Positions 1 to 59,520 of a DNA stretch of 64,000 bases are shown in pieces (position 1 is the stretch's first letter; each line of letters starts with the position of its first letter). Under the pieces are notes generated by a model. That model ran no database searches and was not told where the DNA came from. It worked only from the letters and a program-made list of their open reading frames with translations. Source of the stretch: Geosiphon pyriformis uo1 (taxonomy: Eukaryota > Fungi > Glomeromycota); contig JAAOMT010000128.1 of NCBI GenBank assembly GCA_016748015.1, forward strand, positions 937,538-1,001,537. The letters run 5' to 3'. The position numbers and the translations under genes are program-made.

Positions 1-387
1 ATTATTTTTTTTACATATTTATTTATTTTATAAAACTTAATTGTAATATTATTTAAATTATTGCTTTTAATAGAATTTTAATTACAATTTTTTAATTAAT
101 TTTGATAATACTTCTAAATAACAATATAATAAATTGGTTTTTTAATTTTTATAAATTAAATTTAACATTAATTAAATAAATTTTTTTAAATATTATTTTT
201 AAGTATTTATTATTAAAATATTAAATATCAATTTTTTGTTTTAAATTAGTATAAGTTTTTTTTTTATTAGCTTTACAAGTAAAGTTCAAACACTATCTAG
301 TGCTATACATCAAAGAAATGATCTAAACTAGGCATGAATCATGTACTTTCTACATGTAACCAGCCACTCGAGCCAATCAGAACAATA

Positions 388-3300
388 TTATACAATTATA
401 TGAACTAAAACTGAGTTACTTATGCCTGAAAAAAACAAACAAGTTTTGCAAAAGCCAAAACAAACACCAAAAGCATTAGCAATACCAAGTAATTTGACCA
501 CTCCAGCCAACAATCTTGAGGCCAAACCAGAAACTGAGATAGGAACCAAACCATTGAAGGAAATCAACCTATTCTTCTCTATAAAAGCACAATGTTTAGC
601 ATGAACTGACTAGACATTACTCTTAAAATCAAGACTAAAAGAGCACACAAATTTGACAATTTCCAAACCAGCAATCTTAAGATCCAGAAAAATGGTGACT
701 GCTTCATGAAACCAATCATTAAAAACAAAATCCTTATAAAAAGCTATGGACAAAGAGGAATTAGAAACACATGAAGACAACAGTTGTAGTATGCCCAAAG
801 AAGAATGAAAAAGACCAGAAACTGCCTTTCAGAATTCCACATAGGATTCTAACAACTAATGTTGGACAGAATCATCAATCTTGCAAGAGAATACATAATC
901 CAATGCCTTCACATTTCCACAATATAAACATAACACACTCGAATATAGTCTATTATACAGGCACTTCTAAATAGCAACTGGCAACTGGTAGTGTAAAACC
1001 TTCATAAAATAAGTACATACATTAGCCAAGAGTCTGCTGGTGAAACCAGTGGCCATATGCAAGTCAGGGTGCCAAACCAAAGATAAACAGAACCAGTTAA
1101 TCTCAGAAAGCAAACCGCCTGCCAAAAACCTGGAACCAGAACCAACCTCCCAGTGTACATGACAAACCAAATAATAAATATCACATACAAAATATCTGGA
1201 ATTGCCAAAAATCACACTACCATCAGCCATTATGAAGCATTCACCCAAGCGAAAAGGAAGATACCAATTAGAGAGAGAAGCATCATTAGCAATTGTGTTA
1301 GCATACTCATTCCCTAAAACACCAGAGTGGCTTTTAACTTTATGCTAGTTAATCTTCAAATTTTTACTGTGAATAACATTAACAATATGACAACGTTTGA
1401 CTCAACACTGATCATGAAAGTCGGAACACACCAAACTCAATTCAGACTTACAGACATCTAGCACAGATTAACTATCCAAAAACAATTTAACAGAGCCCAG
1501 TAAGAGGACACTTTCCAGAGCCAGTGCAATAGCCTGCAATTCTGCCAAAATGGATGACATCAAACCTGATACACTAATACCCAAACCCAAATTAATGTCC
1601 TTGAAAAAAGCAGTGGTACCAGCTCTACAACCAACTGTGTCCAAGTTACTAAGGGACCAATCTGTATATACTGACAAACTATCAGCACCAACTTGTGAGA
1701 AACGATTACAGACAGAAACAAAATCACTAGATTTAAAAATGTTCAAAGAACCAACACCATCCAAAACCGAAGGATGAGTAAGAGAGAAACCTTTACCATC
1801 AAGAAATACAACAGAAAGCTTAAACCACTCAGGAACAAAGCCATGAAAGTCTAATCTTTTCTAATGCTTAAAGATGTGCCAATCAAAGACAGAACCATAA
1901 CAATCATAAAGTTGATCCACAAAGACAATACCATACCATTGAAGAGAAAGGAAAAACCTGAAAAACTGTGGCTTGCCTAGAACAGCAGACATAGGGATCT
2001 CACCACAAAACCGAAAAGAATTGGCCAAAGAGCTGTCCAGGGACAAATTGCAATTAAGAAAAATACAAACCATACTTGCCAAAAAGTTATCAGAAACACT
2101 GACATAAATACACACAAGAGAACTCAATAGATAAATAGAGTGTTAGCATAGAACCTGCAAGTCATGGGACCTGTAAAAGAACAAACAACTCAAGACACTA
2201 CCTGAGTTTGCAAAACTAATAAGAGAGACCACTTTGCTCTCAGACTGAACTTGAAAGAAAAATTTCAAACCATAAAAGAAAGAATAATGAATTGTATCAC
2301 TAGGAAAATCGAGAAGTAGGCCAGATTTAAACTTCAAGCCCTTATAAATTAAAGCATTCTACTTGTTGCATGTACCAATAAAAACAAAGCTGAACTGTGT
2401 TCTATAACTAACTATAAGATAAAAAACTGCTGATACCAAATATAAGAACTGTTTATCTGAGACAGCTTTTTTTAGGACCAGATTGGTAAAAAAATGAATG
2501 TCTGAATTTGTTTTTACCAGACTAGGCTTTGAGAAATCTTCAGTTGAGAGAAAAATACCCAAATATTGATGAGATTCACCCTTTTTGGCAATGGAAATTG
2601 GCAAGCCACTGATAGAAAAAGAAGGAGTGCTGACTCTGCTATTGATAGAAATGACCACTATTTTGTTATTATTGATAGAAATATAATTTATCCAAAAAAA
2701 TTCACTTGCAACATTGAGAATATGTTGAATAACTGCCTAATTACTACCAACCCAAATTGTATCATCAATGAAAGCACCAGCAGCAAAAAAAGAAAAGAGC
2801 CCAGCCCAGGACTCAGCACAACCATTCCTTAAAATAAAATGAGAACTTAATCTATAACCACACATGTTTTCCTGTCTCTTGACTTTGCATAGCAGAGGAT
2901 CATAAAATATGCACCACAGAAAAGGAGAAAAAACTTCCCCTTGGTTCAAACCATTATATACACGATAACCATTTGTCAATCCAAAATCTGTCATCACTCT
3001 ATTAGTATAATCTCTATAAATACCACCAAAAAACTAAATGAACTTGCTACACATCTTAATCTTGACCAAACTTTTCTTGAGATGTTTCCAGCTGACTGAA
3101 TTGTATGCTTTCTAAATATCTTGCAAAACCAGTCAGAGCTCCTGATTCTTTCCCAATACATTCTTAACTACTGATCCAATTGCAAAAATAGGAGACTAAG
3201 TCGTCATACCCTTTAAAACCAAAAAATTGTCCTTGCAAAGAATGTCAAAAGTACTGTATACCAAAAAAATCCTATCAGAAAGTATCTTGGAAAGGATCTT

Positions 3301-5077
3301 ACAAGCCATCTCGATTAAAGCAATAGGGTGAGTATTCATGAGAACACCCTTCTACTCATATGGTTTAGGAATTATCAAGACCCAAGCCTTTTTCCAAGAT
3401 TTGGGCACTAATTCACAAGAAAGACAAAAGTTCAAAAATAGCAAAAGCATATCCAAAATCGACTTATTACAATGTTTCCAAAGCTTATTTGTGATACCCG
3501 AGAGACCAGCAGCTTTGCCATCAGGCAGATCGGAAATCACATCAAACAACTTACTAAACTCAACTGAACATATTACACCAGAAAAGACCTCATCAAAAAC
3601 ATAATCTAATGGCCAATATTGATAAGACCAAACATCAGAGACATTGGCTACCACATCACACTTCCTGGTTTATTCTTCTATAATAATGTCTATCTTAGAT
3701 TTAACTGAATTGGACTCCAAAATAAGCTCATCATCAACTACCAGGTAATTCAGAACCACTTTGTGGAAAGGATGCTCCAGAACACTTCTAATAGTATGAC
3801 CCTTATTTGTCTTAAAGCTTTCTATTCTCTTATCTATAGCAGATCTAATGTTTGCCTCCCTAGCCCTCAGAGATTCAGCAAGCTTGGCAGCACAATAAAA
3901 CTTTCTAGCAACAAAGAGAGCAGAATGAATGTGACCAGAGCCAGCACCAGAGTTCACAACATTCTGAACAACTGAAGCCTTAGCATTGTCCAAAGAAATC
4001 CAACATCTCATAAGAAAATCAAAATTTACAATGCTCTTTTCATGTAAAACCCTGACAATTCTAGAAACCAAGAGCTCTAACTTGTGAAATCTCAAAGATC
4101 CCTTGGTAAAAACATTATTAAAGCCCTTGAACCATTTTTTTTTAAACATCTTATCAGCTAAAAAAACCATTATTTTGCGAATAATATTCCACATCACATC
4201 CAAATCCAAAAAGCTTGCAAAGATAGCAAACTTATCTGAGAGCATTGCAGCATTAGCTGATATAGCATCTTTGAAATTGTTCTATTTATTTTTATCAGCA
4301 TCTTTGAAATCAAACCTCCACTGATCCCTATTTGCTTGCTTGCAAAAAGAATTCAACTACATATTCAAAAGTCCATCCAAATCCACAGACATAAAAACAG
4401 CATGATAGTCAATATCAAAAAATTCACCAACATCAGACACCTTGCAATCCACTATAGCATTGACCAAATTCAAAGAAATGAACAAGAAATCAATAGTCTT
4501 AGCCACATCCCAAGAGTTAGCCCATGTGAGCAATTTGACAAAAGAACTTCCATCTAAGAAATTGACCAAACCAAGATCTAGACACTTTTTGAAACTAGCA
4601 CACTTTCGGGAGCCATCTTTATTGAAGTCACCACTCAAAACCACAAACAAAAGATTCATTGACCACCTTTGCTATTACAAAATTAATATCATTAGCCTGA
4701 AAGAAATGAACAGCCATAGATGCTCCAGCATAAAGCTCCAAAATTGACACAGAAAGTTTATTCTTAAATAACAGCTTGACTGAAAGAAGCTAACCAGGTA
4801 CCTCCAAAACCTTACTAATATGACAAGCTAGAGAAGTGTTCATAATGATTGTGACACCAGTACCAAGAAAACCTTTGTCCAATCCAGATGAAAAGATCCT
4901 AACTCTATTGAATTTATCCCTAATCTAAAGCCTGTTGCTAGACCTTAGCTTTGTTTCTGTAATTATCAAAACCAAATTTCCAGAATCTCTATGCCAATGA
5001 ATAATGTTTTTCTGCTTGACAGGAACATTAATATTTTGAACATTACACATTGCAAACTTCTACACAAAGTTATTCAT
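388..5077 (-). pseudogene. LINE-A ORF2: AP endonuclease, reverse transcriptase, RNase H, C-terminal zinc knuckle (many stops)
   Basis: Fragments GDFN..TWANS..IDF (APE); GLNQGEVFSP and AFIDD (RT); VYTD..AELQAI..LDS (RNase H). Confidence 0.92.
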
Positions 5078-7023
5078 TGGGAAGTAAGAGAAGTTGATAA
5101 ACTCAAGCCAGAGCACAAACGATCCAATCTTTCCAAAACAGATTCAACTGATATCTCCAAAGCCACTATCTTGGATTCTAAACCACTCACTTTGGTGGTC
5201 AGAACTTTAAAACTACTTGAACTAAAGTCTGCAACTGAGTCTGCAACAACAACCAAAAAAGAGGGAGGAGGAGACATTAGAGTATCATTCAGAGCTATTT
5301 CTGAGTCCAAATTAGATGTAACAAATGCAAGGACAACCAGAGGAAAGATATGAGATTTGGATGCCTAAGGCATTAATTCCACAAAGCTCAATTTTTTCAT
5401 AATAACCGAAACCTGATCTGCCAAGAGCTTTAAAGAACATTCCAGAGAGGCCAATCAATCAACCAAACAGAAATCACCAAAAGAATTAAAAACCAACAAG
5501 ACAGGTTTTGCACTTGAAGATGAATCAGTACCAAAAAGATCTGACAAAACCGCATAAGAGAAAGAACCACCAGCAATTTGGGTCCAAGTTTTCCCACTGA
5601 AAAAAACTGGGTAAACAATTAGTGTCTGCTTCCTCTTATATATGTTGGCCAAATGGATCCGATCCTGAGGAGTTACCATCTGCTTACCACAAACATCAAA
5701 ATTTCCACCCAATAAACACTCTGTAGAAATATGACCAAACTGTTTGCAATAAGCACAACAGGCCAAAAAAAGGCTAGCCCAGCACAAATTCACACCTTTA
5801 AACACTAGAGTAGAACCAATAGCAGCCAATTTGAATGCTTTGTCAACAAAACACACAATTACACATTTATTATGCACATATGAATTGAGATTATGGCCAA
5901 TGAAACAAGTCTTCTTACCATATGATTTTAACAAATCAGAAAGATTATGAGCTGTAGTACCAACTGAAAAAATATAAAACAATGCCTAATGCAGATCTTT
6001 TGATACTCATGATTGTTTATTATTAATAGCTTTTACCATATGAACAGAATTTTTTCCCATAAAGACAGACCATTTAGCTACAACCAAATCAGCTACTTTA
6101 AATGACTCAAACCCCACAAAAACTTTTTGTCATAGACCAATCAAGTGCATCTTGATTGATGCAATCTTTCCAAACTTAGAAAAAACAGATTTCACAGCCG
6201 ATTTGGGAAAATCAACTGGAATCTCCTTAACAACAATTATCCAATCTGAAAGTTTGTTTATCTGTCTAACATCATCATTCACCACAATTTTCTCATGAAT
6301 TGCCAATTCCCTAGCCTTCTTTAGACTTAATTCAGACGTGAAGAAGGATCTGATAATTCCAGAAAATTTTGAGAAAGTGAAGGCTTTCCCAAAACCATCA
6401 ACTCAATAAAAAATTTTTTTAACTGAAATTAACTTATTACCATTGGTTTTTCTAGACACAGCAAACAATTCCATATTCAAAGTGAATAATTTTACTGGCT
6501 CGAAACACCATTTTTCTAGAACACATGAATCTGCAGACAGCAGCTAATTGAATCTAACAAATTTAGGTGCCAGAAGCACCAACTCAGTATCATTGTCACT
6601 TATATGTTCAAATAAAAGTTTTTTTGGAGGGTTGCCCAACACGTATGTTCGTGTGCAAGTTTTTTTTGGCATTGCTTCATCCATATTATTGTCTTCACCA
6701 GATTTAGCATAACTGGTTTCTTTAGCAACCATGTTTTCCATATTATCAACATTTGAGAGACTGCTTACATTGCTAAAAACACTGCCAACTTTGCTGTCTC
6801 AAGACATTACAGACTTAATACTGACACCACTAATATTTTCTAAGCTCAAAGAGCCAACAGATGAATCAACCACTTTACTGGCTACAGGCATCTTTGGCTT
6901 CTTAAACAATGGACTACAGAAGTACACACTATTCACACGAGCTTTTTTCTTATTACTAGACCAGGTCCCCAAACCAGCTAAACCAGTACCAGAACCACCA
7001 GCAAAAGCACTTACTGGATTTAT
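5074..7023 (-). pseudogene. LINE-A ORF1 (RRM-like, CCHC, coiled coil); start codon appears decayed to ATA
   Basis: CAYCKQFGHISTEC knuckle; homologous to LINE-B ORF1; ends SQ* overlapping the ORF2 ATG. Confidence 0.88.
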
Positions 7024-8641: not shown

Positions 8642-9203
8642 TATTACAAGATGGTTTTCTTGTTATATTTAATTGCTGATATCCCATTTTAATTGCAATC
8701 AGTCTTTCGTGAGTTCCTCAATTCTATTTGTGTAATAATGTCACTGTTATACTGAAGGCTTTCTTTTTAATGTTGTGATGTAAGTTATTCTTCAATTCCT
8801 GATTGTTGTGTGTGTTTATGTACTCCTTCTCAGAGGCTGAACTGAAATCTACCCACTGTCTGGGGTCTTTTCTGAGGCTATCCTTGCAATTGCCTGATGT
8901 GTTTCTCTAATCTAGAAACACAGAATATTAATGGTCTTTAGTGCTTTTTCTAATTCTCACAATAAAGCTTCTGTCTCTTATACACATCTTGTAATACTTT
9001 CTTTTTAATATTTCAACCTGGTGTTTGCTGCTATCACCAGTTGGTGTTGGCTGCTATTGTGAACTGATACTTGCCACTATTGCGAGATGGTATTTGCTAC
9101 TATATTAATCATTACCTTTCTAAGATTATTACTGTGCTATATTATGATTGAATAGTTTGTATTATTTTTATGATTCTTTTTGCTAAATTTTTAAACCGTA
9201 ACA
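8642..9203 (-). repeat. G1 3' LTR (562 bp; 332 bp replaced by adapter sequence)
   Basis: Direct repeat of 17136-18010 except for the segment corresponding to 17465-17796. Confidence 0.95.
8971..8989 (+). other. Tn5 mosaic end / Nextera adapter (assembly artefact)
   Basis: Exact CTGTCTCTTATACACATCT, located precisely where the partner LTR has 332 bp of other sequence. Confidence 0.95.
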
Positions 9204-9218
9204 TTATCCTCTCCTTTC
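9204..9218 (-). promoter_or_regulatory. G1 polypurine tract
   Basis: GAAAGGAGAGGATAA immediately before the 3' LTR TGTTAC. Confidence 0.85.
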
Positions 9219-9885
9219 AAAATTGAGCTCCATCAAAATCAAAGTTAATTTCTTTATTAAATTCTAAGTTACTATAGTGGTTCAATACTGTGTTATTAAT
9301 TTGTTGTTGTAATTCTTGAAATTGCGAATTGGTAAGTTGTCCAATACTGTTGGTTGTTATTATGTTCATGGTTGGGTCCAACAATAATTTGTGACAGTTT
9401 TCAAATGCTTTGAAAATTCTGTAAACTGTTTTTGAATGGAATGTAGTGTTGGTTTTTCCAATGAAAGGTTCTAATAGTTGGATAGTTGTTTTGTCAAACA
9501 CTCTAGTTGAGTCTTTTGAGTATAATATTTGTATGTTCAAGTGCTTTCTTAGTTGATAATAACAGTAATTAATTGGAAATTTCGTTTTTAAGTTGCTAAA
9601 TGTGTCTGGTGTTAATTCACTTATTTCTATTTTTTCTATTATTAATGTATTGCCCAATGCTATTTCTAATTTTTCAATAACTTTGCTAATAAATTTGTTG
9701 TTATATTTGACAATATTATATGATTCAAAATTATGTTCTTTTTTTGTTTTTGGATTTTCTATTGTTCTTTTTATGTATGTTATCTTGGAGCTATTAACTG
9801 TGATTTCCAGATTGGATTTTAATTGTTGTAAGCTTTCAACTAATTGTTGAGTTATATTGTTGATGTTTTCTGGAATAAGTATCAT
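9217..9885 (-). CDS. G1 ORF3, 222 aa, unknown function (intact frame)
   Basis: ATG to stop open; homologues at the same position in G2, G3, G4; ends FDGAQF* within the PPT. Confidence 0.8.
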   Translation of the reverse strand: MILIPENINNITQQLVESLQQLKSNLEITVNSSKITYIKRTIENPKTKKEHNFESYNIVKYNNKFISKVIEKLEIALGNTLIIEKIEISELTPDTFSNLKTKFPINYCYYQLRKHLNIQILYSKDSTRVFDKTTIQLLEPFIGKTNTTFHSKTVYRIFKAFENCHKLLLDPTMNIITTNSIGQLTNSQFQELQQQINNTVLNHYSNLEFNKEINFDFDGAQF

Positions 9886-9969
9886 TGTTTTAATTTTGAC
9901 TGCTATTTTGGAATCTTTTGCATGCGTTTTTATGGTTGTTAAATCATTTTTGCCATGATCTAAAATTAA

Positions 9970-11349
9970 TTATCTTTTTGAATAATGTTCAATTAAAACT
10001 ATTGGTTCTAAATCTCATGGAATTTGTTCTGGTAAAATTAAAGGTAATTGTGTTCCAATTCTGGGTGTTTTTGTTGTTATTACTGGTTTACTGTAATAGA
10101 ATTTCAGCCAGTTACCATGTGCTGCTTTTTTTAATATTTTATCATCTAGTCTTAGCTTGTATGCTCCATTTCCAAGTATTTCGTGAATATAAAATGGTCC
10201 ATCCCACTTGTGATCAAATTTTCCACTCCACTGTTTTTCCATTTTTGTACGATACAACAATACTTTATCTCCAATTTTGTAGCTAATTATATTATCTGGT
10301 AACTGGTTATCATGTCTCACTTTTTGTTGTTCTTGTGATTGTTCAATATTTTGTGCTGCTTTTTTTCTTTTGTTTTCTAAAGTTCTCATTAATTTATATG
10401 TTCTTCTAAGTAGTGTTTCTTGGAATGTTGCTTCCATAATAGTGTCACTTGGATAAGTTGGGATAATAATTTCAACTGGTAATGTGGCTTTTCTTCCATA
10501 AACTAGTTCAAATGGTGTGAATTGTATAGTATCTTGTTTTACTGTTCTATATGCTAGTAGTACTGCTGGTATGAACAAATCCCATTCTTTTTCATGTTTG
10601 TTACTAATTTTCACTAGTAATTCACATAATGTGCGATTAAATCTTTCAACTAATCCATTTGTTTGAGGGTGGTATGGTGATAATAGTGGTCGCTTGATTC
10701 CAAATTTTTGGCTAAGTTCTTTTAAAGTGCTGTTTACGAAGTGTGTGTCTTGATCTGATAGCAATTCTTGTGGACATCTATGTCAGCAAATTAAGTTTTC
10801 ATGTACAAATTGAGCTATGGAAATAGCATCAGCTGTTTTAATAGCTCTAGTTTCTGGCCATTTGGTGAGATAGTCCATGGCTACTGCAATATAATGGTTG
10901 TTTCTTGTTGTTATTGGTAAGGGTCCAACTAAATCAATTCCGATTCTGTCAAATGGCTGTCCAACTTTTATTGGTCTTAATAATTCCATTGTTTTTGCTC
11001 CTCCTCTTCGTTGGCATGGGTCACAATTTCTTATGTATTGGATTATGTCTGAACTCATTTTTGGCCAATAGTAACAGCTAGTTGCACATTGGATGGTTGC
11101 TGTTTTTTCAAAATGGCCTGAATGAATATCTGAGTGCATGTTAAATAAAATAGTTTTTTTTTCATCCGTGGTTATAACTCTTAATAGATTATCTGGATTT
11201 TGTCAATTCTGATAATAAAGTATGTGATTTTGGATGAAATAGTGTTTTGCTAATTTTTGGAGCTTAATTAGCTCTTTTACTGGCATTTTTTCATCTATTT
11301 GTAGTGTTTCTAAGTATTGGCTGAGGTTTTTGTAAAGGTGGTTGTTCAT
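9970..11349 (-). pseudogene. G1 integrase as separate ORF (HHCC, DDE, GPF/SH3-like)
   Basis: MNN start at 11349; HSD..GH..CDPC; IDLVGP, SDQ, NGLVERFN; WDGPF. Confidence 0.9.
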
Positions 11350-11378
11350 TGTTGTTGTGGCGGGTGGGTTGGTGATTT

Positions 11379-14300
11379 TTATGTGTGTCTCATTCTTGAC
11401 AAACAGTCAGCATTAGCATTTTTGGTACCTTCTTTGTATTTGATAATATAATTGTATGGTGCTAACATTTGTGACTATTTGGTGTATTTTTTTTTAGCGC
11501 TTTTTTGTTATTTAATTAGACCAGACCTCTATGATCTGTCATAATCTCAAAGGGTTGGTACCGTAAATATGTGTTAAAGTGAACACAACTCCAGACTACT
11601 GCTAAGCATTTAAGTTTATGTGCTGCGTAGTTTTGTTCTGCCATACTGAGACTTCTACTGACATAAGCAATTACACATTCTCTTTCATTATTATTTTTTT
11701 GTGACAGAATGGCTTTAAGTCCAGTTCTAGAGACATCTGTGGCCAAAATGAATTTCTTGTTGAAATTCGGATAGATCATTATTGGTGATTCAATGAACTT
11801 TTGTCTAAGGTACTCAAAAGCTTTTTGTTGTGCTTCAGTCTATTTAAACTTCACATTTTTGGATAGTAGGTAATTAAGAGGTTTGGCGATGTTTGAAAAG
11901 TTTTCTACAAAGTGGTGGTAGTAAAATGCGAGTCCTAAAAAGCTTCTAACTTCTGAAATGTTTCGAAGTACTGGAAAATTTTTCACTTTGTCTATTTTTG
12001 ATAGATCTGGTTTTATTCCATTTTTTCCAACTACATGTCCTAAAAATGCTAGCTCATTTTTCCCAAAGAAACATTTTTCTAGATTTAGTTTAAGTCTAGC
12101 GTGTCTCAATCTCTCAAAAACTTGTTGTAAATATTGGAGATGATCCGTGAATTTTGACGAGAAAACATTTGTATCATCCAAGTAGACAACAACGGATTGC
12201 CACAGGATTCTGGAGTAAATTACGTCTATTAGTATTTGGAATGTCGCGAGAGTATTTGTTAATCCAAATGGCATTACATTGAACTCATAATTGCCATTTT
12301 GTGTTGTAAATGCTGTTTTATGCCTGTCCTTTGGGTCTATTTCCACTTGCCAGTACCCACTGGTCAAGTCTAGTGTAGAAAACCATTTTGCTCCTCCAAA
12401 AATGTCGAAGATTTCATTAATTAACAGTATTGAATATGAGTCTTCGGTTGTTTTGCTGTTTAGTTTGCAATAATCGATGCAAAATCTAATTTTTCTGTTC
12501 TTTTTCCTTACTAAAACAACTGGTGAGGACTATGGGCTCATTGATAGTTGTATTATTCCTTTTTCCAACATGCTTTGGACTTCTTCTCTGATAAAATTAT
12601 GCTCCATTGGTGGGACATGGTAAGCACGTTGTTTTTCAGATCTGGCATCTCCAGTGGAGATTTGGTGTTGAACCAAGTTGGTTCTTCTAAATTTGCCATT
12701 TCGTGAAAATATATCAGAGTATTTTAAAATTAATGCTTTTAATTGTCACTGTTAGTCAGGATCCATTGTTCTAATGTTTAATTTGGCCAATTCTTCTGGT
12801 GTAAATTGATAGCATTCTAATAGTTGTTGCCAATTTATTGAAGTAAGTTCACAGTAGAGGGCGATTTCTGGGAAATTTGGAATTTCTTGTGGTGTTGACG
12901 TGTTTTCTAGCTCTGTTCTAAGGTATCCAATGATGGTATCTTCCAGAATGTAGATGGGTTCTTCTATGGTGTTTGCGATAGGAATTTTTATCCATTGAGC
13001 TTTATTAGCTGGAATAAAAAGATTAGTAAGTTCTATGAGAAACTGTTGGCAAGTTTCTGAATAGGGCTCAAATATTAGATCTTTTTCTTTAATTGTCCTT
13101 TTTATTTTTATTTCTGATTTTCCATATAGTAGAAGCATAATGGACCGCTTATTTTTAATTACTTCACTTTTTTCCTCTATTGTTTTAGTGAAATTCACTT
13201 CAATTCCTTTTCCTGTCGATCCAAAACCAAAAGTTTCTCTTGTTGTTTGTGACAATTCCTCACGATTTTCCACTGACATGAATTTCCCAATTTTTAGCAA
13301 TGGTAGGAAAATTGCTTGTGCAATCTTTTCCTTAGATTCAATGATATAAAGCTTTTCTGAATTGTTCTGTTGCAAAACCATCAAATTTTCAGTGTATCCG
13401 GAGTCAATTACTCCTCCTTGAACACTTATTCCTTTTTTTGCGAGGCTTGATCGTGACGCTATTTGAACCATTATTCCTGGCGGAATTTCAACCACTATTT
13501 TTAGGTTGATTTTGGTGATGCTCCTGGATGGTAACATTGTGGATTGGTCTTCTGGATAACATAGATCGAATTCGGCATTGGTTGGATGGGCTCTTTTGGG
13601 TATTATTCCTAAGTGCCTATTGTCAAAGTATTGGATATTGGTCACCTGTTCTAGGTTGGTATAGGCTACAAATTTTTCTGACTCGGGACCGTCAGGTAAG
13701 TCTTGTTGATTTATTAATTGATTTTGAGACTGCTGATTCTCAATTTCCATTTTTTTTTCTAAGCCCCTTTTGTCTTGACACTCTTCACAGCACTGATTTT
13801 GGCATGAGATGAGACAGTTTTCACAGAAGTAAGTGTTGATTTGGGCGAGGTATTGTTTTTGCTCTTGTCGAGTGGGGCATAGTTGTTGGTAGTAGTCCTG
13901 GAATTCATCCACTGGGTCGAACATGTTGTAGCTGGTGACTTCGTCGGCTACTTTGGCTGACTCTTTCCAACGTCGTATTTCTTCAGCAGTTCCTCTTTCT
14001 ACTTTGGCTTGTGCGGTGTTGTACAACTCGTCCTCGTCATGTGGGTAGTGCTGTAGTCTTTTTAACACTCTGTTGAACACTGTTTTGAATGGCGTTCCTC
14101 CTCTTACCCAGTCACAGATGAAGATCATGTATTGGCAAGTTGCGTCACATGTTTCTCCTCTGCCTGATATGTCATTCCAGTCGCACCCTCTTGGTAACAG
14201 TTCTCCACAAGCGAGGCACGGTTTCTCGTCCCATTTTCTGTGTCTTTCTGGGTAACCGTATTTTTCTTTATTACAATGGTTACAATAGTAGTGGGTGGAG

Positions 14301-17053
14301 TTTCTTGGGTCTTCATTTGGTGTGCTGCACGCAGTCATAGACGAGAGTTTCTTCTTGCAAACTGAGCATTCTAGCTTTGGTCTGCGTCGCTGGTGGTTTC
14401 TTTGTGAACTTACCTGGTTTCATTCGGATCTTTCTTCGCTGGTTCACGTTGGTATGGCTGGTAGTCCTGTTTTTTGGTCATCAGCCCAAGAGAGCTGATA
14501 GGTTTTGATGGCTGGTAGTGCTGGATTTTTCTCAAATTCAAAGGTAGGTCTTTAGTTGGCACTGGGTTTTTGGAAGTGGCCACAGATGGCTGGAATTTTG
14601 GCCTGGTGGTCATTATAATTGATCAGAAGCTCTTGAGTGGTCCAGTCTAGGGTGGTGTTGGCTTTTGTTAGCCAGTCATTCCCTACTAACACTTGATATT
14701 GTGTAGCATCCATTACTAATACTTTTGTAGGTATTACTATGCTGTTAATTTCGAAAGGAAATAAGTCAATTTCATCATGAGGCAGCTTTGTACTTCCATT
14801 GGCTGTTATGATTTGGGACGTCACAGCACGATTAACTTTGAAACTCAGTTGGTTTATTAGTTGAAGCGTTATGATGCTTTTAGCAGATCCGCTGTCTAAG
14901 ATAAGTTTGATTGGGGTATTGTTTACAGTGGCTTCCGTATACATAGCAGTGATTGAACATTTTTCGTCCAATGCTGCTCTACTGAACATAGCCTTGTTTT
15001 TTTCTAATTCAAAAGGAAAAATAGCTGTGAGGCTGCTATCTTCGGTGGCAACTGCTGGTGGTATTGTCTGGCTCAATTTGTTGCAGAAATTCTTGGTTCT
15101 GTTTATGTTTCTACCATCATTATTTCCGATGATCAGATTTTCTGGTATATTAAGATAAGTTTGTTGATAATTTTGGTAGTTTGGATTGGTTTGCTGATTG
15201 GTTTTGGCGCGGTTTGGATTCCTCTGGACCAATGCATTCTGGTTCTATATAAGCTGATTTCGGGCCTCAGGACGCCAATTCAGGTTGGCTATCATGGGCT
15301 GTTGCTGGTAAGCTCCTTAATTTTGATATGTGGTGGGATATTGGTGTGGTATTGGTGTGTACTGGTTTCTGGACATTTGGAGTGGCGTGTAGTAATTATT
15401 TTTATGTGCTTCTTGCATCATTTGCGTTCAACATTAACTAATTAAATGTCCTACATATTAGCAAAAATGGCAGGTGCGTGTTTCTGTTCTGAATTCCTGG
15501 CATGACAAGTGATTATTTCGACTGTTGCTGACTTCCTGGCTGTGTCTTTGGGGTGGTTAGTATGTATTTTTTCTTGGATCCAGGATGAGATAACTTTCTA
15601 TTTTCTTAGAGAGTTCCTCCCCTAATTGCATTACTCTTTTCTCTAATGTTTCTGTCTTATTTTCCTCCATTACCATGTTAACTATTTGACTATGGTTAGC
15701 TTCTTTTTCAGCCAATTCAAGGGCTCTGGCGAGTGTAACGGCTTCTGGTAAGGAATTAGGGTGGGCAGGGCATACTCTTCCTAAAATGCTGCTTTTTAAT
15801 CCTCTAATAAACTGATTTAAAACCTGAAGATCAGTGTAGTATCCTTGTTCAATTGCTTCAATCTGATGGCAAATTCGATTTAATTGAGCAAGGTATTGGG
15901 TGACAGTTTCACTGGTATTTTGCTTGATAGTATTGAATTCATTCTGTAGTTGGATTACGGTGTTTGGGTCGCTAAAATACTCCAGGAGTGCATTTTTAAA
16001 TTTGGCAAAGCTCGTAAGTTTTGTTTTCAGGCTTTGATACCACGAGTCAGCTGTGTCTTTTAGGAAGAAAAGTAATGTTTGAATTGCTCTTTGGTCATTC
16101 CAGTTATTTGTCTGGATGGCTTTTTGTGCTTCTCTGAGCCATGTGTGCACGTCCGTTTCTTTTTCCTCTTCTAAGAAATCTGTTAGTCTTGCAATGTATA
16201 GTGTGGTCATTTCGTTGCTGTTTTTTGCTGGTGGGCTTATTGGTCTAAGAAGAGATGGGATGATATTTTCTTGAACATTCCTAAAGGTGGCTTTCCTTAT
16301 ATCCAGTTTTTTCTCTTGATTATGAGTTTCTTGGTTTCTGGACTGGCTGATTGTTTTTTCACTGGTCTCTTTTTTGGATTCCGATTCAGACTCCTCTTTA
16401 CGGTTTTTAAACTCTGTTCTAAATTTTGGCTGAAAAAGAGGGTTTTGGAATAGTGATGAATATCCTCCTGTAATTGATATGTCTCCCCAGTTATGTTGTT
16501 TATCAGTATAACTAGGAGTTCTTGGCATTTGTGAAGTTGATGATGATACAGCTCCTAATGGAATTTGTATCTTATTTTCTGGTAAAAAATGGTATGATTT
16601 ATCTTCTGGTGAATAAATACATTGTTTTTTTATTGATTGAGTGACAGTTTTTTTTGGTGTTTGAGCTGGTGTTCCTAGTTTTTGCTGGTTACTTTCCTGA
16701 TTAGTTTCTAAATTTTCTTTGGTTTTGTTGACACGTTCCCTAGTGTTTCCTGTAGATATTGAAAAATTTTTGTTGGTGTATTGCTCAATTTCTCGATGGA
16801 TTTTAACAATAGTTGCGGCTATTACTGCTACTTCTTTTGTAGTGTATTGTGATAATTTTCTATACAATCCAAGTTTTGCATTGTGTGGTTCTTCTTTCTT
16901 TCCTATATGATAATTTATTCTAGTGTTGATATAATAAGTGAGGGCAGATTCTGCTGGACAACACTCTTCTGGTAATCCAAGATCACTTTGATTTTGTGTG
17001 TAAATAGCATGGCAGAATTCAAGAACAGTAAGATTAGGGGTTTTTGTCACCAC
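11379..17053 (-). pseudogene. G1 polyprotein Gag-PR-Cys-rich-dUTPase-RT-RNase H
   Basis: Fragments 15557-17053, 14552-15232 (LILDSGS), 12752-14338, 11840-12367 (VYLDD) and 11516-11779 (ATD..YAAH) share one frame; one frameshift near the end. Confidence 0.93.
13208..13620 (-). other. dUTPase domain in G1 polyprotein
   Basis: Five trimeric-dUTPase motifs: AEFDL, RSS, GGVIDSGY, KIAQ, R..FGFGSTG. Confidence 0.92.
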
Positions 17054-17115
17054 TTTTGTCTCTTCCTTTTTAGCAATGAATTATTGCTAATTATTATTTT
17101 CTTTTTGATTTTCTT

Positions 17116-17133
17116 TCCTCATAGGGTTCACCA
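17116..17133 (-). promoter_or_regulatory. G1 primer binding site TGGTGAACCCTATGAGGA (tRNA unassigned)
   Basis: Starts TGG, 2 nt (TT) after the LTR end CA. Confidence 0.8.
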
Positions 17134-17135
17134 AA

Positions 17136-18010
17136 TGTTACAGAATAGTTTTCTTGTTATATTTAATTGCTGATATCCCGTTTTAATTGCAATCAGTCTT
17201 TTGTGAGTTCCTCAATTCTATTTGTGTAATAATGTCACTATTATACTGAAGGCTTTTTTTTTAATGTTGTGATGTAAGTTATTCTTCAATTCCTGATTGT
17301 TGTGTGTGTTTATGTACTCCTTCTCAAAGGCTGAACTGAAATCTACCCACTGTTTGGGGTCTTCTCTGAGGCTATCCTTGCAATTGCCTGATGTGTTTCT
17401 CTAAACTAGAAACACAGAATGTTAATGGTCTTTAGCGCTTTTTCTAATTTTTACAATAAAGCTTTTATCAATTAGTAACAACGTGAATAATCTTGATCAA
17501 GGATTATTCTTCCAAGAAATTCAGTTGATGAATGATAGTTTCATTCAATAAATAATACAAGTAAGTTTCTTAATACTTTGGATTGTGATAATTCAGTTTT
17601 AAATATTTTTTTTTTATTTCTTTTTGATTTAAAGGTTTCTTGGGATATTTAATTTGGAAGTATGATTTAAAGTAGAGTTTGTTGAATAAAATTGGATCTA
17701 TTGCTTGATAAGTTATGATTTTTATTACTTGATTTTTTTTCCCAATATTAAAATTACTGTATATATACATGTTTGTAGTTCTATGAGAAAACACTTTGTA
17801 ATACTTTCTTTTTGATATTTCAACCTGGTGTTTGCTGCTATCACCAGTTGGTGTTGGCTGCTATTGTGAACTGATGCTTGCCACTATTGCGAGATGGTAT
17901 TTGCTACTATATTAATCATTACCTTTCTAAGATTATTATTGCGCTATATTATGATTGAATAGTTTGTATTATTTTTATGATTCTTTTTGCTAAATTTTTA
18001 AACCATAACA
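17136..18010 (-). repeat. G1 5' LTR (875 bp)
   Basis: Direct repeat with 8642-9203; ~23-nt tandem repeats at 17826-17910; TATA-like at ~17757-17768. Confidence 0.95.
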
Positions 18011-23767: not shown

Positions 23768-25669
23768 ATGGATTCAGTGGGCTCTTCTGCTGGTGCTTCG
23801 AGTTCGAGTTCAGCTGGGTTGGAGTCCCAGTCTGACAGTAAAAAAATTAAAGTGCATGTTGAGAGTATATACTCATGTAATTCTTTATACAAAAAAACAA
23901 AGTTGCCTGGTGTTTCTGGTGGTGTTATGGACTCATTAGACAGCCTGATTTCGGTGGATATGCTACATAGTGATGGTGTTGGGCTGCAGAGATCTTGGGG
24001 AAGCAAAGTAGATAGTGAGGAAGCAGGTGTTAGTAAGGTGTCAGATGCCAAGAATTTGGAAAGCGCAGTTGCTGAGAAGACAAATTACATGAATTCCAAT
24101 GCTTCTAAGACTGATAAAATGGAAGACAATGTGACTCCGAAAAAAACATGAACAAGAACCCTTATTTTGAAACAGCTGCCAAAGGCAATTTCCTTCGCAG
24201 GCATGAGTGATGACAATACTAAGTTGGTGCTTCCTGGAGCTAAATTTGCTGAATCCAATTGGCTGCCATCTGTGATTTCACGTGTTTTGGAACGTTGCAT
24301 CTTTGAACCAGTTAAATTGTTCGCCTTAGATATAGAGTTGTTAAATGTGTCTGAAAAGACCAATAGTAATAAGTTGATTTCAATTAAGAAAATTTTTTAC
24401 AGAATTGATGGTTTTGAGGGAGCCTCAACTCTCTTAAAATTTTCTGGTATCATTCGGTCAACTTTCACAAGTGGGTCTAGTTTGAATAAGGCCAGGAAAA
24501 TGGTGATCAATGAAAAAATAATTGTGAACAATAATCTCAAAAAAATTAACAACCATTCGGATCAGGAAATAATCATTAAGGAGATCCCAGTAGATCTTCC
24601 CAAATTAGCAATTGAAGCAGTGTTTTCCAAATTTGGCAAAATTATATCAATCAAGATGCAATTAATTGGGCTTTGGCAGAAGGCTTTGGTAAAATTTGAG
24701 TCTATTAAAACTGCATGTTTGGTCGCGTCTAAATGGTCAGTTCTCATGGGTAAAGATTCTGTGCGTGTTGCTTTGGCCATCAGTGACAAGAAGCTATGGA
24801 TTTTGAGGGACTGTTATCGCACTTTGTTGTACACCCTTCTGGTTGGTACTACTGCACATAATCTTTCTGAATTGGTGGAGGCTTATGGTGGGAAAACATG
24901 TTTTATTGGCTGAAATCCTAATTCATATGTTTGTGATAAGTGTGTGGTTATTTGTTTTGAGAGTAAGGCATCTAAGTTGGCTGCTATTGGTTCTGTTCCT
25001 GTTTTCAAGGGTGTGAGTTTGCAGTGGGCTGGTTTTTTTTTGGCCAGTTGCACTCAGTACAAACAATTTGGTCATATTATAATTAACTGTTCTTTGGGTG
25101 GGAATTCTGGTGTCTGTGAGAAACAAGTGTTCTTTAATCAAGACCAGGTTTATCTGGCTGGCATTTATAAGAAAAAGCTGGCTTCTATCTCCCATCCCAT
25201 GTTTTTCACTGGTAAAACTTGGGCTTAAGTTGCTGGAAGTCTCAATTCTCGCATGGCTTTGTCGTTTCCTGGTAGCAGTTTGCTGTCGACCATAGTACCT
25301 CCCCCTCAATTTTCTTTGGATGTGAATAATAGGTTTGCCACTCTTGAGTGCAGTCTTGCCAGCCTTGCTAAGCAGGTTGATAAGCTGGCCAAAAGGTTGG
25401 ATGTACTTGGGCTGACAGTTTCCCAGCATGGCCCTGAATGTCAGCCATTGATAACCTCTTTATCACAGAATCAAGGGGCGGATACAGTGATGAGTGAGGA
25501 TTTGGGTGCAGCCACTAGTGGTAGGACTGTTGTAGAGACAGTTGTTTACAATTTGTTAGCAGTTTCTAAATTGGAAGATACTTTGAATATTCTTTCAAAA
25601 ACTGTTATGGGCCTTTTGGCCAGGTTGGAAAATGCTGGTTTGGGTTTTGGATCACTTCCCTCTCAATGA
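23768..25669 (+). pseudogene. LINE-B ORF1 (RRM-like, CCHC, coiled coil)
   Basis: IIIKEIPVDL..VFSKFGKI RRM; CTQYKQFGHIIINC decayed knuckle; ends PSQ*. Confidence 0.9.
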
Positions 25670-27509
25670 CTGACATCATTTGGAAGGTAGCTACATGTAA
25701 TGTTCGAGGTATGAACAATTTTGCAAAACAGGAAGACATTGTGTATTGGCACAAAGATTTATGCAATTTGGTTTTCATTCTCATGGAAACAAAGTTGAAG
25801 GATAAAACTCATCTTTGGTTGGCTAGCAAGTTTGATGGTATTCGTGTTTTCTCTTCTGGTTTGGTCTCTGGCTACACTGGAGCTGGTGTCATGATGGTTT
25901 TGGACAATTTTTTAGCTAAGCATGTTAGTAAGGTTTTTGAGGTTCCTGGCCACCTTCTCTGCATTAAGTTACTTTTTAAAAACAAACTTTTGGTTTTTAT
26001 TTTGGGGCTTTATGCTGGTGCTTCTTTGACTGCTTGGTTTTCCCAAGTTGCTGAGGTCAATTCCTTGATTGCAAGGGCTGTTAATGAATCTTCTTTTGTT
26101 ATTCTTGGTGGTGACTTCAATGAGGATAGTTTTCAGAAGTGCACCAGTCTCAAAAAATGCTTTGATTTGGGTTTGGTTAACTCTCTGGAGAGGAGCTCTT
26201 CTGTGAAGTTACCTACTTGGTACAACTCTCATGGTGTTGCTAAGACAATTGATTACATGTTTATTTTGTCTAATTTGATTAGTGCAGTAGTAGATTGTAA
26301 TGTGACTACTGTCGATGACTATTTTGATACCGATTATAAGGCTGTTTCTGTATTCATGGGTCTTGGTGGTTTGCTGGATGTACAACTGAACTCTTTGCAT
26401 AAACAGACAAATAGGGATCATTGGAAATATAATTTTATGAGTGCTGATAGTGCTAAGTAGATCAAATTCAAAGAAAATACGGCTGCAAATACTGCCATGT
26501 TTTGTGATAAGTTTGGTGCTGCTGGGAGGAGTTCAGATTTGGACTTGATGTGAAATGCTCTCTACCAAGTAGTGTGCTTGTCAGCAGAAAGTGTTTTTAA
26601 GAAGAAATAGTTTAAGAGCTATAACAGTGTTTTTAATAGGGCATCCTCCAGATTTCACAAATTGGAACTTTTGGTGTTGAGGATTGTCAAGTCCTCACAT
26701 CTGGCTTCCCATAATGAGTTTGTTTTCTTACTTGGCTTATGAAGTGGTCTTGATTCTATCAACACTTCTGTTGTTAAGTCTCTTTTTCTTTCAGGTTCCC
26801 ATTTTGATATCATTCAGTTAGTTTTGGCCAAAATCAGAAAATTTTACTGTTTGTCTAAGTTGTTGGAATCAGACCATGCTAGGAAGTCTCAGATCAGATT
26901 GGCAATTGACAGAAAAATAGAGAGCTTTGAGTTGAACAAGGGTTATACTATTAGGAGTGTTTTGGAATGCCCTTTCCGCAAAGTAGGTTTAAACCATCTA
27001 GTGGTGAGTAATGAGCTGATTTTGGAGCCTGATCTTGTGAAATCTAAAGTGGATGTGATTATGGAGAGTTAGACTCAATCATGTCAGGTGGTTACTGATG
27101 TCTCTAGTGATTGGAATCATCAATATCAACCTTTGGATTATGTTTTTAATGAAGCCTTTTCTGGTGTAATAAGTTCAATTAGTTTTGATGAGTTGTTCAG
27201 GATGGTTTCTGGTCTGCCTGATGGCAAAGCTACTGGCCTTTCTGGAATTTTAAATGAACTCTGGAAGCATTGTAATAGATCTGTTTTGGATATGCTTTTG
27301 GTGCTTTTAAACTCTTGTTTGTTATGTGAATCAGTGCCTTGCTCCTGGAAGGAGGTGTGGGTCTCAATGATCTCTAAACCATATGAGTGGAAGGGTGTAC
27401 TAACAAATACACATCCTATTGTTTTGATTGAGATGGCTCGTAAGATTCTTTTCAAGATTCTCTCTGATTAGATTTTGTTAACATGCAGCATGTTTGACAT
27501 TTTTTGTGG
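25666..27509 (+). pseudogene. LINE-B ORF2 5' part (APE endonuclease, tether, RT start)
   Basis: WKVATCNVRG, ETK, GGDFN, TWYNS, IDY; PDGKATGLSG, KPYEW. Confidence 0.92.
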
Positions 27510-28494: not shown

Positions 28495-28496
28495 TT

Positions 28497-28513
28497 TGGT
28501 GCTCTCCCATGGA
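28497..28513 (+). promoter_or_regulatory. G2 primer binding site TGGTGCTCTC...
   Basis: TGG 2 nt after the LTR end; first 8 nt identical to the G3 PBS. Confidence 0.75.
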
Positions 28514-28540
28514 AATAACACAGCAACAACAAAATTTAAA

Positions 28541-34159: not shown

Positions 34160-34210
34160 AAAACACAAAAACCAACACTCAACTTAACCAACCAAAAGAG
34201 CCAACAAACA

Positions 34211-35596: not shown

Positions 35597-35740
35597 ATTA
35601 ATTTTACTAGTTATTCCTTATAATTTAAAAATAATTTTACAAAAACAAAACAAAACAAAACATACTGAAAGACAAAAATAACATAAAAACCCACATACCA
35701 AAAATAATTTCAATCTATTTTTCTCACTCAAATTTTTATA

Positions 35741-36398
35741 ATAACTATCCCTCAAAATATTCAACAAATATCTCAAAAATTAATGCTAGTTTTAAAGACA
35801 ATACCCGAATTATCTATCACTATTACAAGAAAACATATTAATTATACCCAAACAGAAATAGTCGCCAGTTTAGCCCCAAATTCATAAAATTATCACTCCT
35901 ACAAAAAGAACACAAGAAGTTACTCTGGAATTCACCTGCCAGAACTTTTGAAGCTTGCTTTAAAAGAAAATTTAATGTTCACTTCTATTAGTATTCCACC
36001 AAATGCTACTATTTAACAAAAACTTCAACTGTGTCTTAATGAAAAAAACCACGACTATACTCCAATATATAGATATTTTTACATTGGAAAAACACTTTAC
36101 AAATGAAAACGGGAGCTTACAGCAACAAACCTCACAAAAGAAGCTATTTAAAAACAACTTCACAACAAATTCAAAACAATAGCTGGACCTACAAACAGTC
36201 GCTATAAACTAAGAGCTGCTCTTAGACTTTATGATCTATTTTACACCTGTGAAAATTACGACCTTTGAAGATTCAATACATTGGAAAGTTCACAGAACTG
36301 AAATTTCAACAATTTTTAGATCAAATTTTTTCAATAATTTTAGATTACTATCTGGAAATTACAAACAGTACTTGAATTTTGACGGAGCTCAGTCTTGA
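35741..36398 (+). pseudogene. G2 ORF3 (decayed, frameshifted)
   Basis: TIPQNIQQISQKL start resembles G1/G4 ORF3; ends FDGAQS* before the PPT. Confidence 0.7.
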
Positions 36399-36409
36399 GG
36401 AGGAAGTTA

Positions 36410-37394
36410 TGTTACCAGATGAAATTAGAGATATTATTTAGCATGAAAATTATCTTATAAATCCTATCATTAATTAGCATATATTATTGTTTCAAATTAT
36501 CACTTATTATATTATCAAAATATCCGAAATTATCATTTAAATTAATAACCCAATTTGTACACAAACACAAATGTAATCTAATTGCGATAATCAATCATGC
36601 AATACCCCAAACTATGTAACATTCAAAAGTTCACCGAAATTTGTAGAAATTTGCCAAAATAATTGATAGTTCACCAAAATATCTAATAGTTCGCAGAAAT
36701 AACTTGTAGTTTGCTGAAATGTATCTTTAGTTCAGCAAAATTGTAGAAAATAGCAAAATTCAAGTTCATAGAATAGTGTTATGACAAGTTGTATAAAAGA
36801 AGAGCATTTCTCTTTGAGAAAATATATCTTACTTTAGATTTATTACTTAGAACCATTCCTACATACACAAAAAGAAATAAAAATCAAATAATTCGAAAAA
36901 ACCAAATTTTTTAATTATTACACTTAGAAAATCCTCAAAACCCAACTAACGTTTTGAAATTGATTAGCTACCAATTTCAGTAAACTGTTAGTGACTCCAG
37001 GCCTGGATAGAAAACGTTTCCCTTGACAAAATTCTATTTTTTTTACATTTTTTTTATTTTTCTTTTATTTTTTATTATTACAATCATTAGGGTAGCCTAC
37101 AGACGAGATTTCTGTAGAAGAGTTGACTTTCACAGCAAAGTAACTACACATTTTTTGTGAGCTTCCAAACGAGCAATTCCTGGGAAAGAGTTGATGTTTA
37201 CTACAATGTAACTAAATAAAGTAACTGGCACAAAATTGGCCATTCCACTTATAAGCCCAGCAAGTTTAAATTATAGGAGATAATTTGAAGATAAATTCAG
37301 TTACTGAAGGTCCAACTACTTCCTGGAATCGTGAATTCACAACAAACAGACATTAACAACATTCAAGAAAAGAGACCAAAAACCTCTGGTAACA
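36410..37394 (+). repeat. G2 3' LTR
   Basis: Repeat of 27510-28494, preceded by PPT GAGGAGGAAG. Confidence 0.96.
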
Positions 37395-37398
37395 GTGG

Positions 37399-40241: not shown

Positions 40242-40596
40242 TGTTGTTTTGACTGGCCCAAGTGGCTGGTCATGTGTAGAAAATGCATGATTTGCACCTA
40301 CTTTAGATTATTTTTTTGATGTATAGCAATAGGTAGCATTTGAACCTCACTTATTAATTAATAAAAAAAAAAATTAAGTTTTTAATATTATTTTTTATTT
40401 CTTTTAATTAATTTAAAGATTTATTTAAATATTTATTAAAAATAAATATTAAAAGATAATTAATATAAAAAATAATTTTTTTTAATATAATAATTAAAAA
40501 TCAGTAGTATTTATTAATTATTACATGTATTAATTATTATTATTATATAATTAGCCACTTTATTTTTAGATAATAATTAAGATTTTAATTAATAAT

Positions 40597-47944: not shown

Positions 47945-47958
47945 TTATCCCTCTCTTT

Positions 47959-48693
47959 TTAAAATTGAGCTCCTGCAAAACTGTATGTATCTGTTATCAT
48001 GGCTTTGTTCGTGTAATGTTCGATTGTTGCCTTGAGTATTGCCTTTTGTAGGTTTTTGAACTATTGATTGGTTATTCGTTCTATGCTGTTAACTATTATG
48101 GTTTTCATAGATCCATTCAGTAGTATGTTTGGACAATGTTGGAAGATGGCATATAGTCGGTATACTGCTTTGTAATGTAAAGTCAGATTGTTTTTCCCTA
48201 CAAATTTTTCTACTTGTTATATTGCTTCTTTGTTGAACGTTTTCTGGCTGAGGTCTTCATATGGTGTTTTCAAGTCAAGCTGTTCTCCAATTTTGTAGAA
48301 CCAATAAGCTGGAAAAAGTCTTTCTTTCCATTCCTGGGCATTTTCAGGTGTCTACTCCTCTGTTTTGGGGAGTTTGGTTCCACAAGCTAAAGCTTGTTTT
48401 ATTTCTTCAAGCTTGGAGACCAAGTATCTTCTTTTGTAACCTTTTTCTTATTCTTTGCCTCCTTCTTTTCCACCTCCCATCCAAAGGCAATTTTTCCTCC
48501 CACATTGCCTTTCGGGTGGTGGGTAGGGAAGGGAATGTTTAGTTCTAATTGAACTCTCGTCCTCCCCTCTTCTGCTCTTATCTTTGTACTGTATTTCTTT
48601 TTTATCAATTGTTATTTCTATTTAAGATGTCAATTTTTGAATTGTTTCAAATAATTGTTTAGATAATTTTAAAATTTGATCTGAAAGGTCTAT
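47959..48693 (-). pseudogene. G3 ORF3 (decayed)
   Basis: DLSDQILKLSKQLF start; LHYKAVYRLYAIFQHCP..LL; ends FAGAQF* at PPT AAAAAGAGAGGGATAA. Confidence 0.78.
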
Positions 48694-50141: not shown

Positions 50142-50151
50142 GGGTCTGGAA

Positions 50152-58871: not shown

Positions 58872-58890
58872 TTATTTTCTTCTTTTAATA

Positions 58891-59520
58891 TTAAGCTCCA
58901 TCAAAATCTTTGTTTTGAATTAATTCTAATACTTTTTTTTCAAGTATTGTTTGTTTGACTCTGTTTTTTACATTTTTTACTTGTGTATTGTTCATTCTTC
59001 CCCATTGGTTAATGGTTATGGTTTCTATTTCAGAGTGTAACAGTATTTCTGGATAGTTTTGAAATATGTTGTGTAGTTGGTACATTGTTTTAACATGTAG
59101 TATTGAATTTGTTTTCTTTCTGATAAATTCTTCAATTTGTTGTATTATGTCTTGGTTGAATATTTTTTTGGATTTGTCTATATACAACTTCTAAATATTT
59201 AAATTTCAACCTAACTGATAGTAACAGTATAATATTGGAAGTTGTTCTGTTTATTGCTTCTGATTCTCTTTTGTAAGTTCTTCTGTTAGTGCCATAATAA
59301 GTATTTTCCCAAAAGTGTTTTTTACTTTTTCTTTTATATTATCTGACCAGTTTTTATTATTCTTTGATAACCACTGATATGGTGTATTCTTTGTCTTTCT
59401 TTTGGTGTTTTGATAGCAAATTGTTTGGTTGTTAACAATAATTTCCATGTCTAATAGTTGTTGATTTAAGGCCTGGAATAATTGTTGAGCTATGATGTGA
59501 ATATGATCTGGTATTTCCAT
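58891..59520 (-). pseudogene. G4 ORF3 (in-frame stops)
   Basis: MEIPDHI..QQL; PILYCYYQLG; IF..IQQIE.FI.KKTN..HVKT.Y; ends DFDGA. Confidence 0.8.

Follow-up and report, generated by a model that had tools for sequence, protein, structure and literature searches.

The window, by which we mean the whole 64-kb stretch of Geosiphon pyriformis DNA analysed here, consists of AT-rich repeat DNA, within which four Ty3/Gypsy elements (G1 to G4) were delimited by self-comparison and Pfam searches. Their positions, those of the parts of G1, and those of the third open reading frame (ORF3) of G1 and its homologues are:

About 8642-18010, reverse strand: element G1.
8642..9203, reverse strand: 3' LTR of G1.
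9204..9218, reverse strand: polypurine tract (PPT) of G1, with a conserved GGAGCTC motif just before it.
9217..9885, reverse strand: ORF3 of G1, intact, 222 codons from ATG to TGA, its stop abutting the PPT.
9886..9972, reverse strand: G1 spacer from the stop of pol to the start codon of ORF3; it measures 87 nt with the stop counted in and keeps the pol frame.
9973..17080, reverse strand: gag and pol of G1, interrupted by stops and frameshifts.
17138..18010, reverse strand: 5' LTR of G1, sharing 95-98% identity with the 3' LTR.
27510-37394, forward strand: element G2.
35741..36435, forward strand: ORF3 homologue of G2, with stops and one frameshift near 36232-36262; its frame crosses the PPT into the LTR.
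46851-57010, reverse strand: element G3.
47959..48693, reverse strand: ORF3 homologue of G3, with 5 stops.
From about 58.0 kb to beyond the window end, reverse strand: element G4.
58888..59520, reverse strand: ORF3 homologue of G4, with 4 stops.

The elements carry the hallmarks of Ty3/Gypsy retrotransposons, namely LTRs with TG...CA ends, a PBS, a PPT and a target-site duplication (clear in G1 and G2), and have the gene order Gag-PR-RT-RNaseH-IN. Target-site duplications of 4 bp were found in G1 (CCAG, read from the flanks) and G2; the flanks of G3 are decayed, and the far end of G4 lies beyond the window. Pfam detected Gag, protease, dUTPase, RT and integrase in G1, the integrase bearing an SH3-like end, and the RNase H region was recognised by tblastx against L001, an element from a metagenome that is described below. 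A dUTPase lies between protease and RT in G1 (12752-14419), G2 (31892-32962) and G3 (51885-52676) (Pfam), and no chromodomain was detected by Pfam at the integrase end of the window elements.

Both G2 LTRs contain an array with a 20-bp period (27756-27820, 36628-36727), and both G3 LTRs one with a 10-bp period and a 50-bp higher order (47690-47895, 56735-56980); no periodic array was found in the G1 LTR, and no motif is common to the LTRs of all families. The 3' LTRs of G3 and G4 share a 104-bp block (about 47254-47351 and 58490-58591) that is 70% alike, the LTRs being otherwise unrelated; this block is A-rich and may be of low complexity. In G1, the 5' LTR contains an extra block of ~330 bp (17465-17795) that is absent from the 3' LTR, where a short different stretch is found instead.

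The window also contains decayed LINE-like elements (24152-27509 with 37395-40475; 40967-46850 with 57011-58002; and 142-6603) that carry endonuclease, RNase H and a weak RRM match. Since LINE-like similarity resumes on their far sides, G2 and G3 each appear to have inserted in such an element. A separate AT-rich, self-complementary segment with a 12-bp periodicity occupies 40559-40684. The CpG observed/expected ratio of the whole window is 0.29, and contigs of run X1, which is probably DNA, differ from the window mostly by T>C and A>G (179 of the 205 listed kinds of difference). Together, these observations indicate that the window copies decayed by C-to-T change on both strands.

The initial annotation described an ORF of ~210-245 codons in all four Gypsy families. 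Homologous regions are indeed present in all four, and each sits, as had been proposed, between the end of integrase and the PPT/3' LTR, but the frame is open in G1 alone (one of four); the G2 homologue has 4 stops in its first 175 codons in addition to its frameshift. With the G1 protein as a tblastn query, the homologues were recovered in G4 (59514-58894, 35% identity, E 5e-31), G3 (48687-47962, 28% identity, E 5e-27) and G2 (35738-36351, 24% identity, E(2) 2e-6, in two frames). Pairwise scores against G1 are 297, 265 and 97 for G4, G3 and G2, compared with shuffled maxima of 73, 64 and 61, respectively. G2 is the most diverged, as noted earlier: its scores against G3 (61) and G4 (59) barely exceed those of shuffles (54 and 53). 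A six-frame profile scan of the LTRs and the rest of the window detected ORF3 in just these four places. The encoded proteins have a pI of 8.7-9.7. A shared "YCYYQL" motif had been reported, which is literal in G1 and G4 but reads YWFYKI in G3 and YRYFYI in G2.

A GGAGCTC-type motif is found right upstream of the PPT in all four elements (9220-9232, 36384-36396, 47962-47974, 58891-58900) and in L001 (3093-3100). It is likely a cis signal that overlaps the last residues of ORF3: its GGAGCT core is free of synonymous changes in all four copies, so the terminal "DGAQF" of the protein probably reflects a DNA-level signal near the PPT.

Relatives of ORF3 extend beyond the window. A first homologue search returned eight matches, all of them Geosiphon pyriformis proteins at 43-94% identity, and a profile built from the four copies retrieved 101 proteins (E<=0.001) from 1.84 billion representatives. 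Of these, 43 share at least 60% identity with one of the families in the window, and 34, by an eye count, form a fifth ORF3 family closest to G4; two others (P0087, P0108) were set aside as apparently repeat-driven false matches. Among ten profile matches that were looked up, six came from Geosiphon and four from metagenome clusters (P0046, P0070, P0093, P0100) at 20-26% identity. At its C-terminus, P0046 has the same PPT read-through residues as P0070 and the G2 family. No genomic context for the P0093 family was found among metagenome contigs, and viral contigs gave no match. Several public gene models (P0002-P0009, P0013, P0016, P0020, P0023) splice pieces of ORF3 to LTR, Gag or RNase H sequence, and look like annotation artefacts on decayed repeats.

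The metagenome element L001 contains, in this order, RT, RNase H, integrase, a 316-nt spacer, an intact ORF3 of 230 aa, a PPT and an LTR. Its integrase is 55-61% identical to those of the window, and its ORF3 and pol are in different frames. Copies of a TTGCCCT motif occur in its pol-ORF3 spacer as well as in its LTR (2252-2285, 3401-3413, 3465-3477, 3562-3574), which could mark an internal promoter with sites common to the LTR.

In the ESM Atlas, the G1 ORF3 had no match, and P0046 was placed at 0.90 near a nameless Mucoromycota cluster of 98 members, which is a weak lead. A similar pattern is found in a common nameless helical domain of Glomeromycotina repeat proteins. PHROG matches (E 0.0008-0.03) fell in four unnamed families, each shared by at most two of ten ORF3 members; leads from PHROG, traced in 201 genomes each, gave one weak match and no match. 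The best phage tblastn match (E 0.4) was discarded as antisense to annotated genes.

The initial annotation had proposed a selected accessory factor and suggested dN/dS across families as a check. Using the four window copies and L001 (Nei-Gojobori, NG86), we obtained for ORF3 a dN of 0.52-0.80 against a dS of 1.27 to saturation in 10 of 10 pairs, with dN/dS below 1 in every pair, these values being rough in that dS approaches saturation, alignment was done at the protein level and post-insertion decay is counted in. Integrase dN over the same comparison is 0.22-0.36, so that ORF3 dN is about 2-3 times higher. As judged from these alignments, the values show that ORF3 is under constraint, weaker than that on integrase. 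In six of six pairs of window copies, codon position 2 shows more nucleotide identity than positions 1 and 3; about half of the identical residues are encoded by different codons; and the coding frame is the best-scoring frame in five of six pairs, G2-G4 being tied. The proposal of a selected factor is thus supported by homology, dN below dS, conservation in the coding frame and the intact homologue of L001.

Given its position, ORF3 might be an env remnant or a neutrally captured host fragment, and the broken state of three of the four window copies is in line with this. The protein nevertheless does not look like an envelope, in agreement with the earlier reading. No transmembrane stretch is apparent, the highest 19-residue hydropathy being 0.59-1.18 across copies; the hydropathy scan, as distinct from a dedicated signal-peptide predictor, detected no hydrophobic N-terminal stretch in any copy; and neither Pfam nor the Foldseek viral library showed similarity to a viral fusion glycoprotein. 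The brokenness is, moreover, not specific to ORF3, as pol of those copies is broken as well, and both the selection detected among families that are 55-67% identical in integrase and the intact copy in L001 argue against neutral capture. A remnant of this kind is very improbable and already largely refuted.

The structural predictions give ORF3 two parts:

9769..9870, reverse strand: module at the N-terminus (residues 6-39), modelled as helix-strand-strand with a pLDDT of about 60-68.
9271..9612, reverse strand: C-terminal helical domain (residues 92-205), from the model and conserved columns.

The full-length G1 model (pLDDT 72, pTM 0.62) joins these by a low-confidence linker. The protein had been described as looking helical, which in the model holds for the C-terminal part but not for the whole N-terminus. 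The C-domain of the L001 homologue (120 residues) was modelled as seven helices with pLDDT 92.4 and pTM 0.85. Its conserved pattern in ORF3 is Y-x-Y-x-x-IG-x-x-L, N, RLY-x-x-F, LL, G, F, I, and the columns kept in at least seven of ten sequences are Y, Y, I, G, L, N, R, L, Y, F, L, L, G, F and I. The helix that follows the conserved G-x-x-N turn bears Arg/Lys; its start differs between families, and it then runs into RLY-x-x-F. Because the conserved columns are aromatic or aliphatic plus G, N and R, with no invariant catalytic residue, ORF3 is probably not an enzyme; neither the catalytic residues nor a Pfam match of a DEDDy exonuclease or GDSL esterase was found.

Database comparisons gave no assignment. 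The G1 ORF3 has no match in Pfam, and thus none there to a characterised retroelement domain; three ORF3 profiles found no match among PDB sequences (best E 0.14-0.53); and Foldseek returned no significant match to the ORF3 models in the PDB and viral (BFVD) libraries. With VIA, the full-length G1 model reached a best Z of 5.0, to helix pairs, with no ParB-family row in the best 50, and a second look gave a best Z of 3.4. These searches covered full-length and C-domain models, and the lack of matches does not in itself show a new fold.

A hint came from a VIA search of 48,161 chains with the L001 C-domain, in which five of the best 50 rows belong to the DNA-binding cores of four ParB-family proteins: Spo0J (1vz0; Z 4.0, rmsd 3.4, 80 aligned), KorB (1r71; Z 3.5, rmsd 4.6, 85 aligned), VirB (3vwb; Z 3.5, rmsd 3.9, 78 aligned) and SopB (3mky/3mkw; Z 3.4, rmsd 3.9-4.0, 87 aligned), all Z values in this search being below 5.3 and so under the level that the tool calls common for helical models. 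KorB, VirB and SopB are established ParB-family proteins; as mutual relatives, the ParB rows count as one hint. The alignments run along nearly the whole C-domain, and ParB-type sequences are scarce in the PDB (15 of 177,635). The top row was Orc6 (Z 5.2), and a sigma-F domain (1l0o_C) was also aligned (Z 4.4, rmsd 2.4, 57 aligned).

One of ten ORF3 members matched Pfam DUF1016_N (PF17761), at E 0.037 with 14.6 bits against a cut-off of 32.8 bits and at E 0.017 in a second search, and none matched the ParB HTH (PF17762). We built comparison alignments from fetched loci for YhcG N-termini (74 sequences), DUF3102 (41) and the ParB HTH (30). Profile-profile scores from hhalign were 17-19 for DUF1016_N, 14-16 for DUF3102 and 10-13 for the ParB HTH, within the block-shuffle maxima (19.2, 16.9 and 17.8); as DUF3102, DUF1016_N and ParB were not linked to each other either, the method is not sensitive enough to dismiss a kinship. 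In an HMM test, the median was highest for DUF1016_N (2.0 bits, versus 0.1 for reversed and -2.6 for decoy sequences); DUF3102 (PF11300) scored like its reversed copies, and an unrelated nuclease-domain control also scored above decoys. Two high decoys in this test, from loci beside weak DUF3102 matches, were regarded as noise; the one that was checked is a different, coiled-coil-like ORF. ORF3 does not qualify as a member of the ParB HTH, DUF1016_N or DUF3102 families. It resembles ParB cores, DUF1016_N and DUF3102 in size, helix order and low-Z whole-domain alignments, and the last two also have an aromatic-x-IG-x-x-L helix at the corresponding place. It shows no significant sequence or profile similarity to them, stands in a eukaryotic retrotransposon, and has neither the ParB CTPase domain nor a PD-(D/E)XK nuclease domain.

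ORF3 could be made as a separate protein or as an extension of Pol. In every family, independent gene models place their initial Met at the homologous site (G1; P0021 and P0037 in G2; P0014, P0121, P0124 and P0064 in G3; P0051 and P0083 in G4; and the fifth family), which, together with the out-of-frame position in L001, favours a separate gene. Alternatively, ORF3 might serve the pre-integration complex as an integration-targeting or nuclear-tethering module, produced in some families at least as a Pol C-terminal extension by fusion, read-through or frameshift. It would then take the place of the chromodomain of chromoviruses, which Pfam did not detect in these elements, and a DNA-binding fold is also compatible with such a role. 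G1, G2 and G4 have their ORF3 in the pol frame, no further stop follows that of pol in the G1 spacer, and three fifth-family models (P0033, P0098, P0101) appear, by eye, to start on the terminal motif of pol and continue in frame into ORF3. Against this, the openness of the spacer is not significant (P 0.08, 0.23 and 0.52), the spacer of G2 contains 5 stops within 48 codons, that of pol included, L001 separates its two frames by 316 nt, Met is kept at the ORF3 start throughout, and the fifth-family P0107 is out of frame. We regard a tether of this type as unlikely.

The initial annotation suggested three functions, of which a translational transactivator for downstream ORFs finds no target: ORF3 is the last ORF, and stop-free runs in the LTR do not exceed 104 codons. 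The other two, RNA export or hairpin binding and anti-silencing, bear on wider alternatives. As a basic, soluble and helical protein, ORF3 might bind the RNA of the element and assist its export, packaging or re-initiation, like Rev or caulimovirus P6/TAV, and in the ESM Atlas P0046 lay near a closterovirus coat cluster (0.91) and a T4-type translation repressor cluster (0.88). These rows are nonetheless weak by the tool's own marks (recognition 2119, below 2300; 138 shared features, below 170), there is no Arg-rich run in G1, and BFVD and the PDB gave no fold or profile match to such proteins; with no ORF downstream either, we judge this role quite unlikely. Somewhat better placed, albeit still improbable, is an anti-silencing or host-antagonist adaptor, whose helical protein-interaction domain would prevent or divert methylation of the element's DNA or its silencing by small RNAs. 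Fast evolution is typical of conflict proteins, and the higher dN of ORF3 relative to integrase would fit, as would its lack of catalytic residues and the host pressure visible in the CpG depletion and the T>C and A>G differences to X1. In plant VANC proteins, anti-silencing overlaps with sequence-specific DNA binding. On the other hand, we found no similarity to a known suppressor, and dN/dS is below 1 in all pairs.

Weak as they are, the positive hints all point to a DNA-binding HTH-like domain, which was not among the three suggested functions. We therefore tentatively favour, at less than even confidence, a reading in which ORF3 binds DNA and regulates its own element, acting through its weakly ParB-HTH-like C-domain. 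The protein would be translated on its own, perhaps by way of an internal promoter, splicing or re-initiation, and be nuclear, and the modelled C-domain would bind DNA, possibly with the helix after the G-x-x-N turn as the reading helix. Its target would most likely be the LTR of its own element, the 20-bp array of G2 and the 10-bp array of G3 being candidate sites. By analogy with foamy-virus Tas, the product of a 3' accessory ORF, such binding would increase or adjust transcription of the element in a heavily methylated genome. A more specific version, which we consider rather doubtful, is that a fungal Ty3/Gypsy clade acquired a bacterial or phage-type ParB/DUF3102-like HTH as a regulator of itself, its recognition helix diverging in each family toward its own LTR. 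If true, this would mark them as "complex" retrotransposons encoding their own transcription or anti-silencing switch, and would account for a large domain family of early-diverging fungi that has no name.

Additional sense ORFs between pol and the 3' LTR (aORF-3S) are a known category (Vicient and Casacuberta 2020, PMC7264820). ORF3 agrees with it in being in sense orientation, lying between pol and the 3' LTR, being kept across copies and families, and having no assigned function; unlike the env-like members with transmembrane domains, it is soluble, fungal and devoid of the named domains. Bdelloid rotifer elements carry a non-env ORF3 that is a GDSL esterase, a DEDDy exonuclease or a membrane protein (Rodriguez, Kenefick, Arkhipova 2017, PMC5408684). 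They resemble the present elements in having a non-Env gene in the env slot and a dUTPase, reported there for both rotifer and basidiomycete elements, whereas the fungal ORF3 has no such Pfam match or invariant catalytic residues. Foamy-virus Tas, HIV Tat and Rev (both named in PMC7264820) and caulimovirus P6/TAV are likewise small non-structural genes downstream of pol, with which ORF3 would share a regulatory role; no sequence or fold match between any of them and ORF3 was found, and the likeness is one of analogy alone.

In the literature searched, with subscription papers, supplements and Repbase/GyDB outside its scope, we found no description of this ORF3 gene. The sections consulted of a survey of fungal LTR elements describe two ORFs and do not contain the word "dUTPase" (PMC3248453), and those of a survey of transposons in arbuscular mycorrhizal fungi give 41.2% LTR sequence for G. 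pyriformis and show no third ORF (PMC11952901). What is new here, on sequence evidence, is a real, selected, soluble and unnamed ORF3 family in fungal Ty3/Gypsy elements; the aORF-3S category itself was already known.

Two intact versions of ORF3 are known, at 9217-9885 of the window and in L001, and the family explains many "hypothetical" gene models in the G. pyriformis genome. Fungal LTR retrotransposons are treated as two-gene elements; a selected third gene in at least five families and in unrelated metagenome elements implies that a function beyond gag and pol is needed. With LTR sequence making up 41.2% of the G. pyriformis genome (PMC11952901), a regulator or silencing antagonist encoded by the elements themselves would be a testable candidate cause of this expansion.
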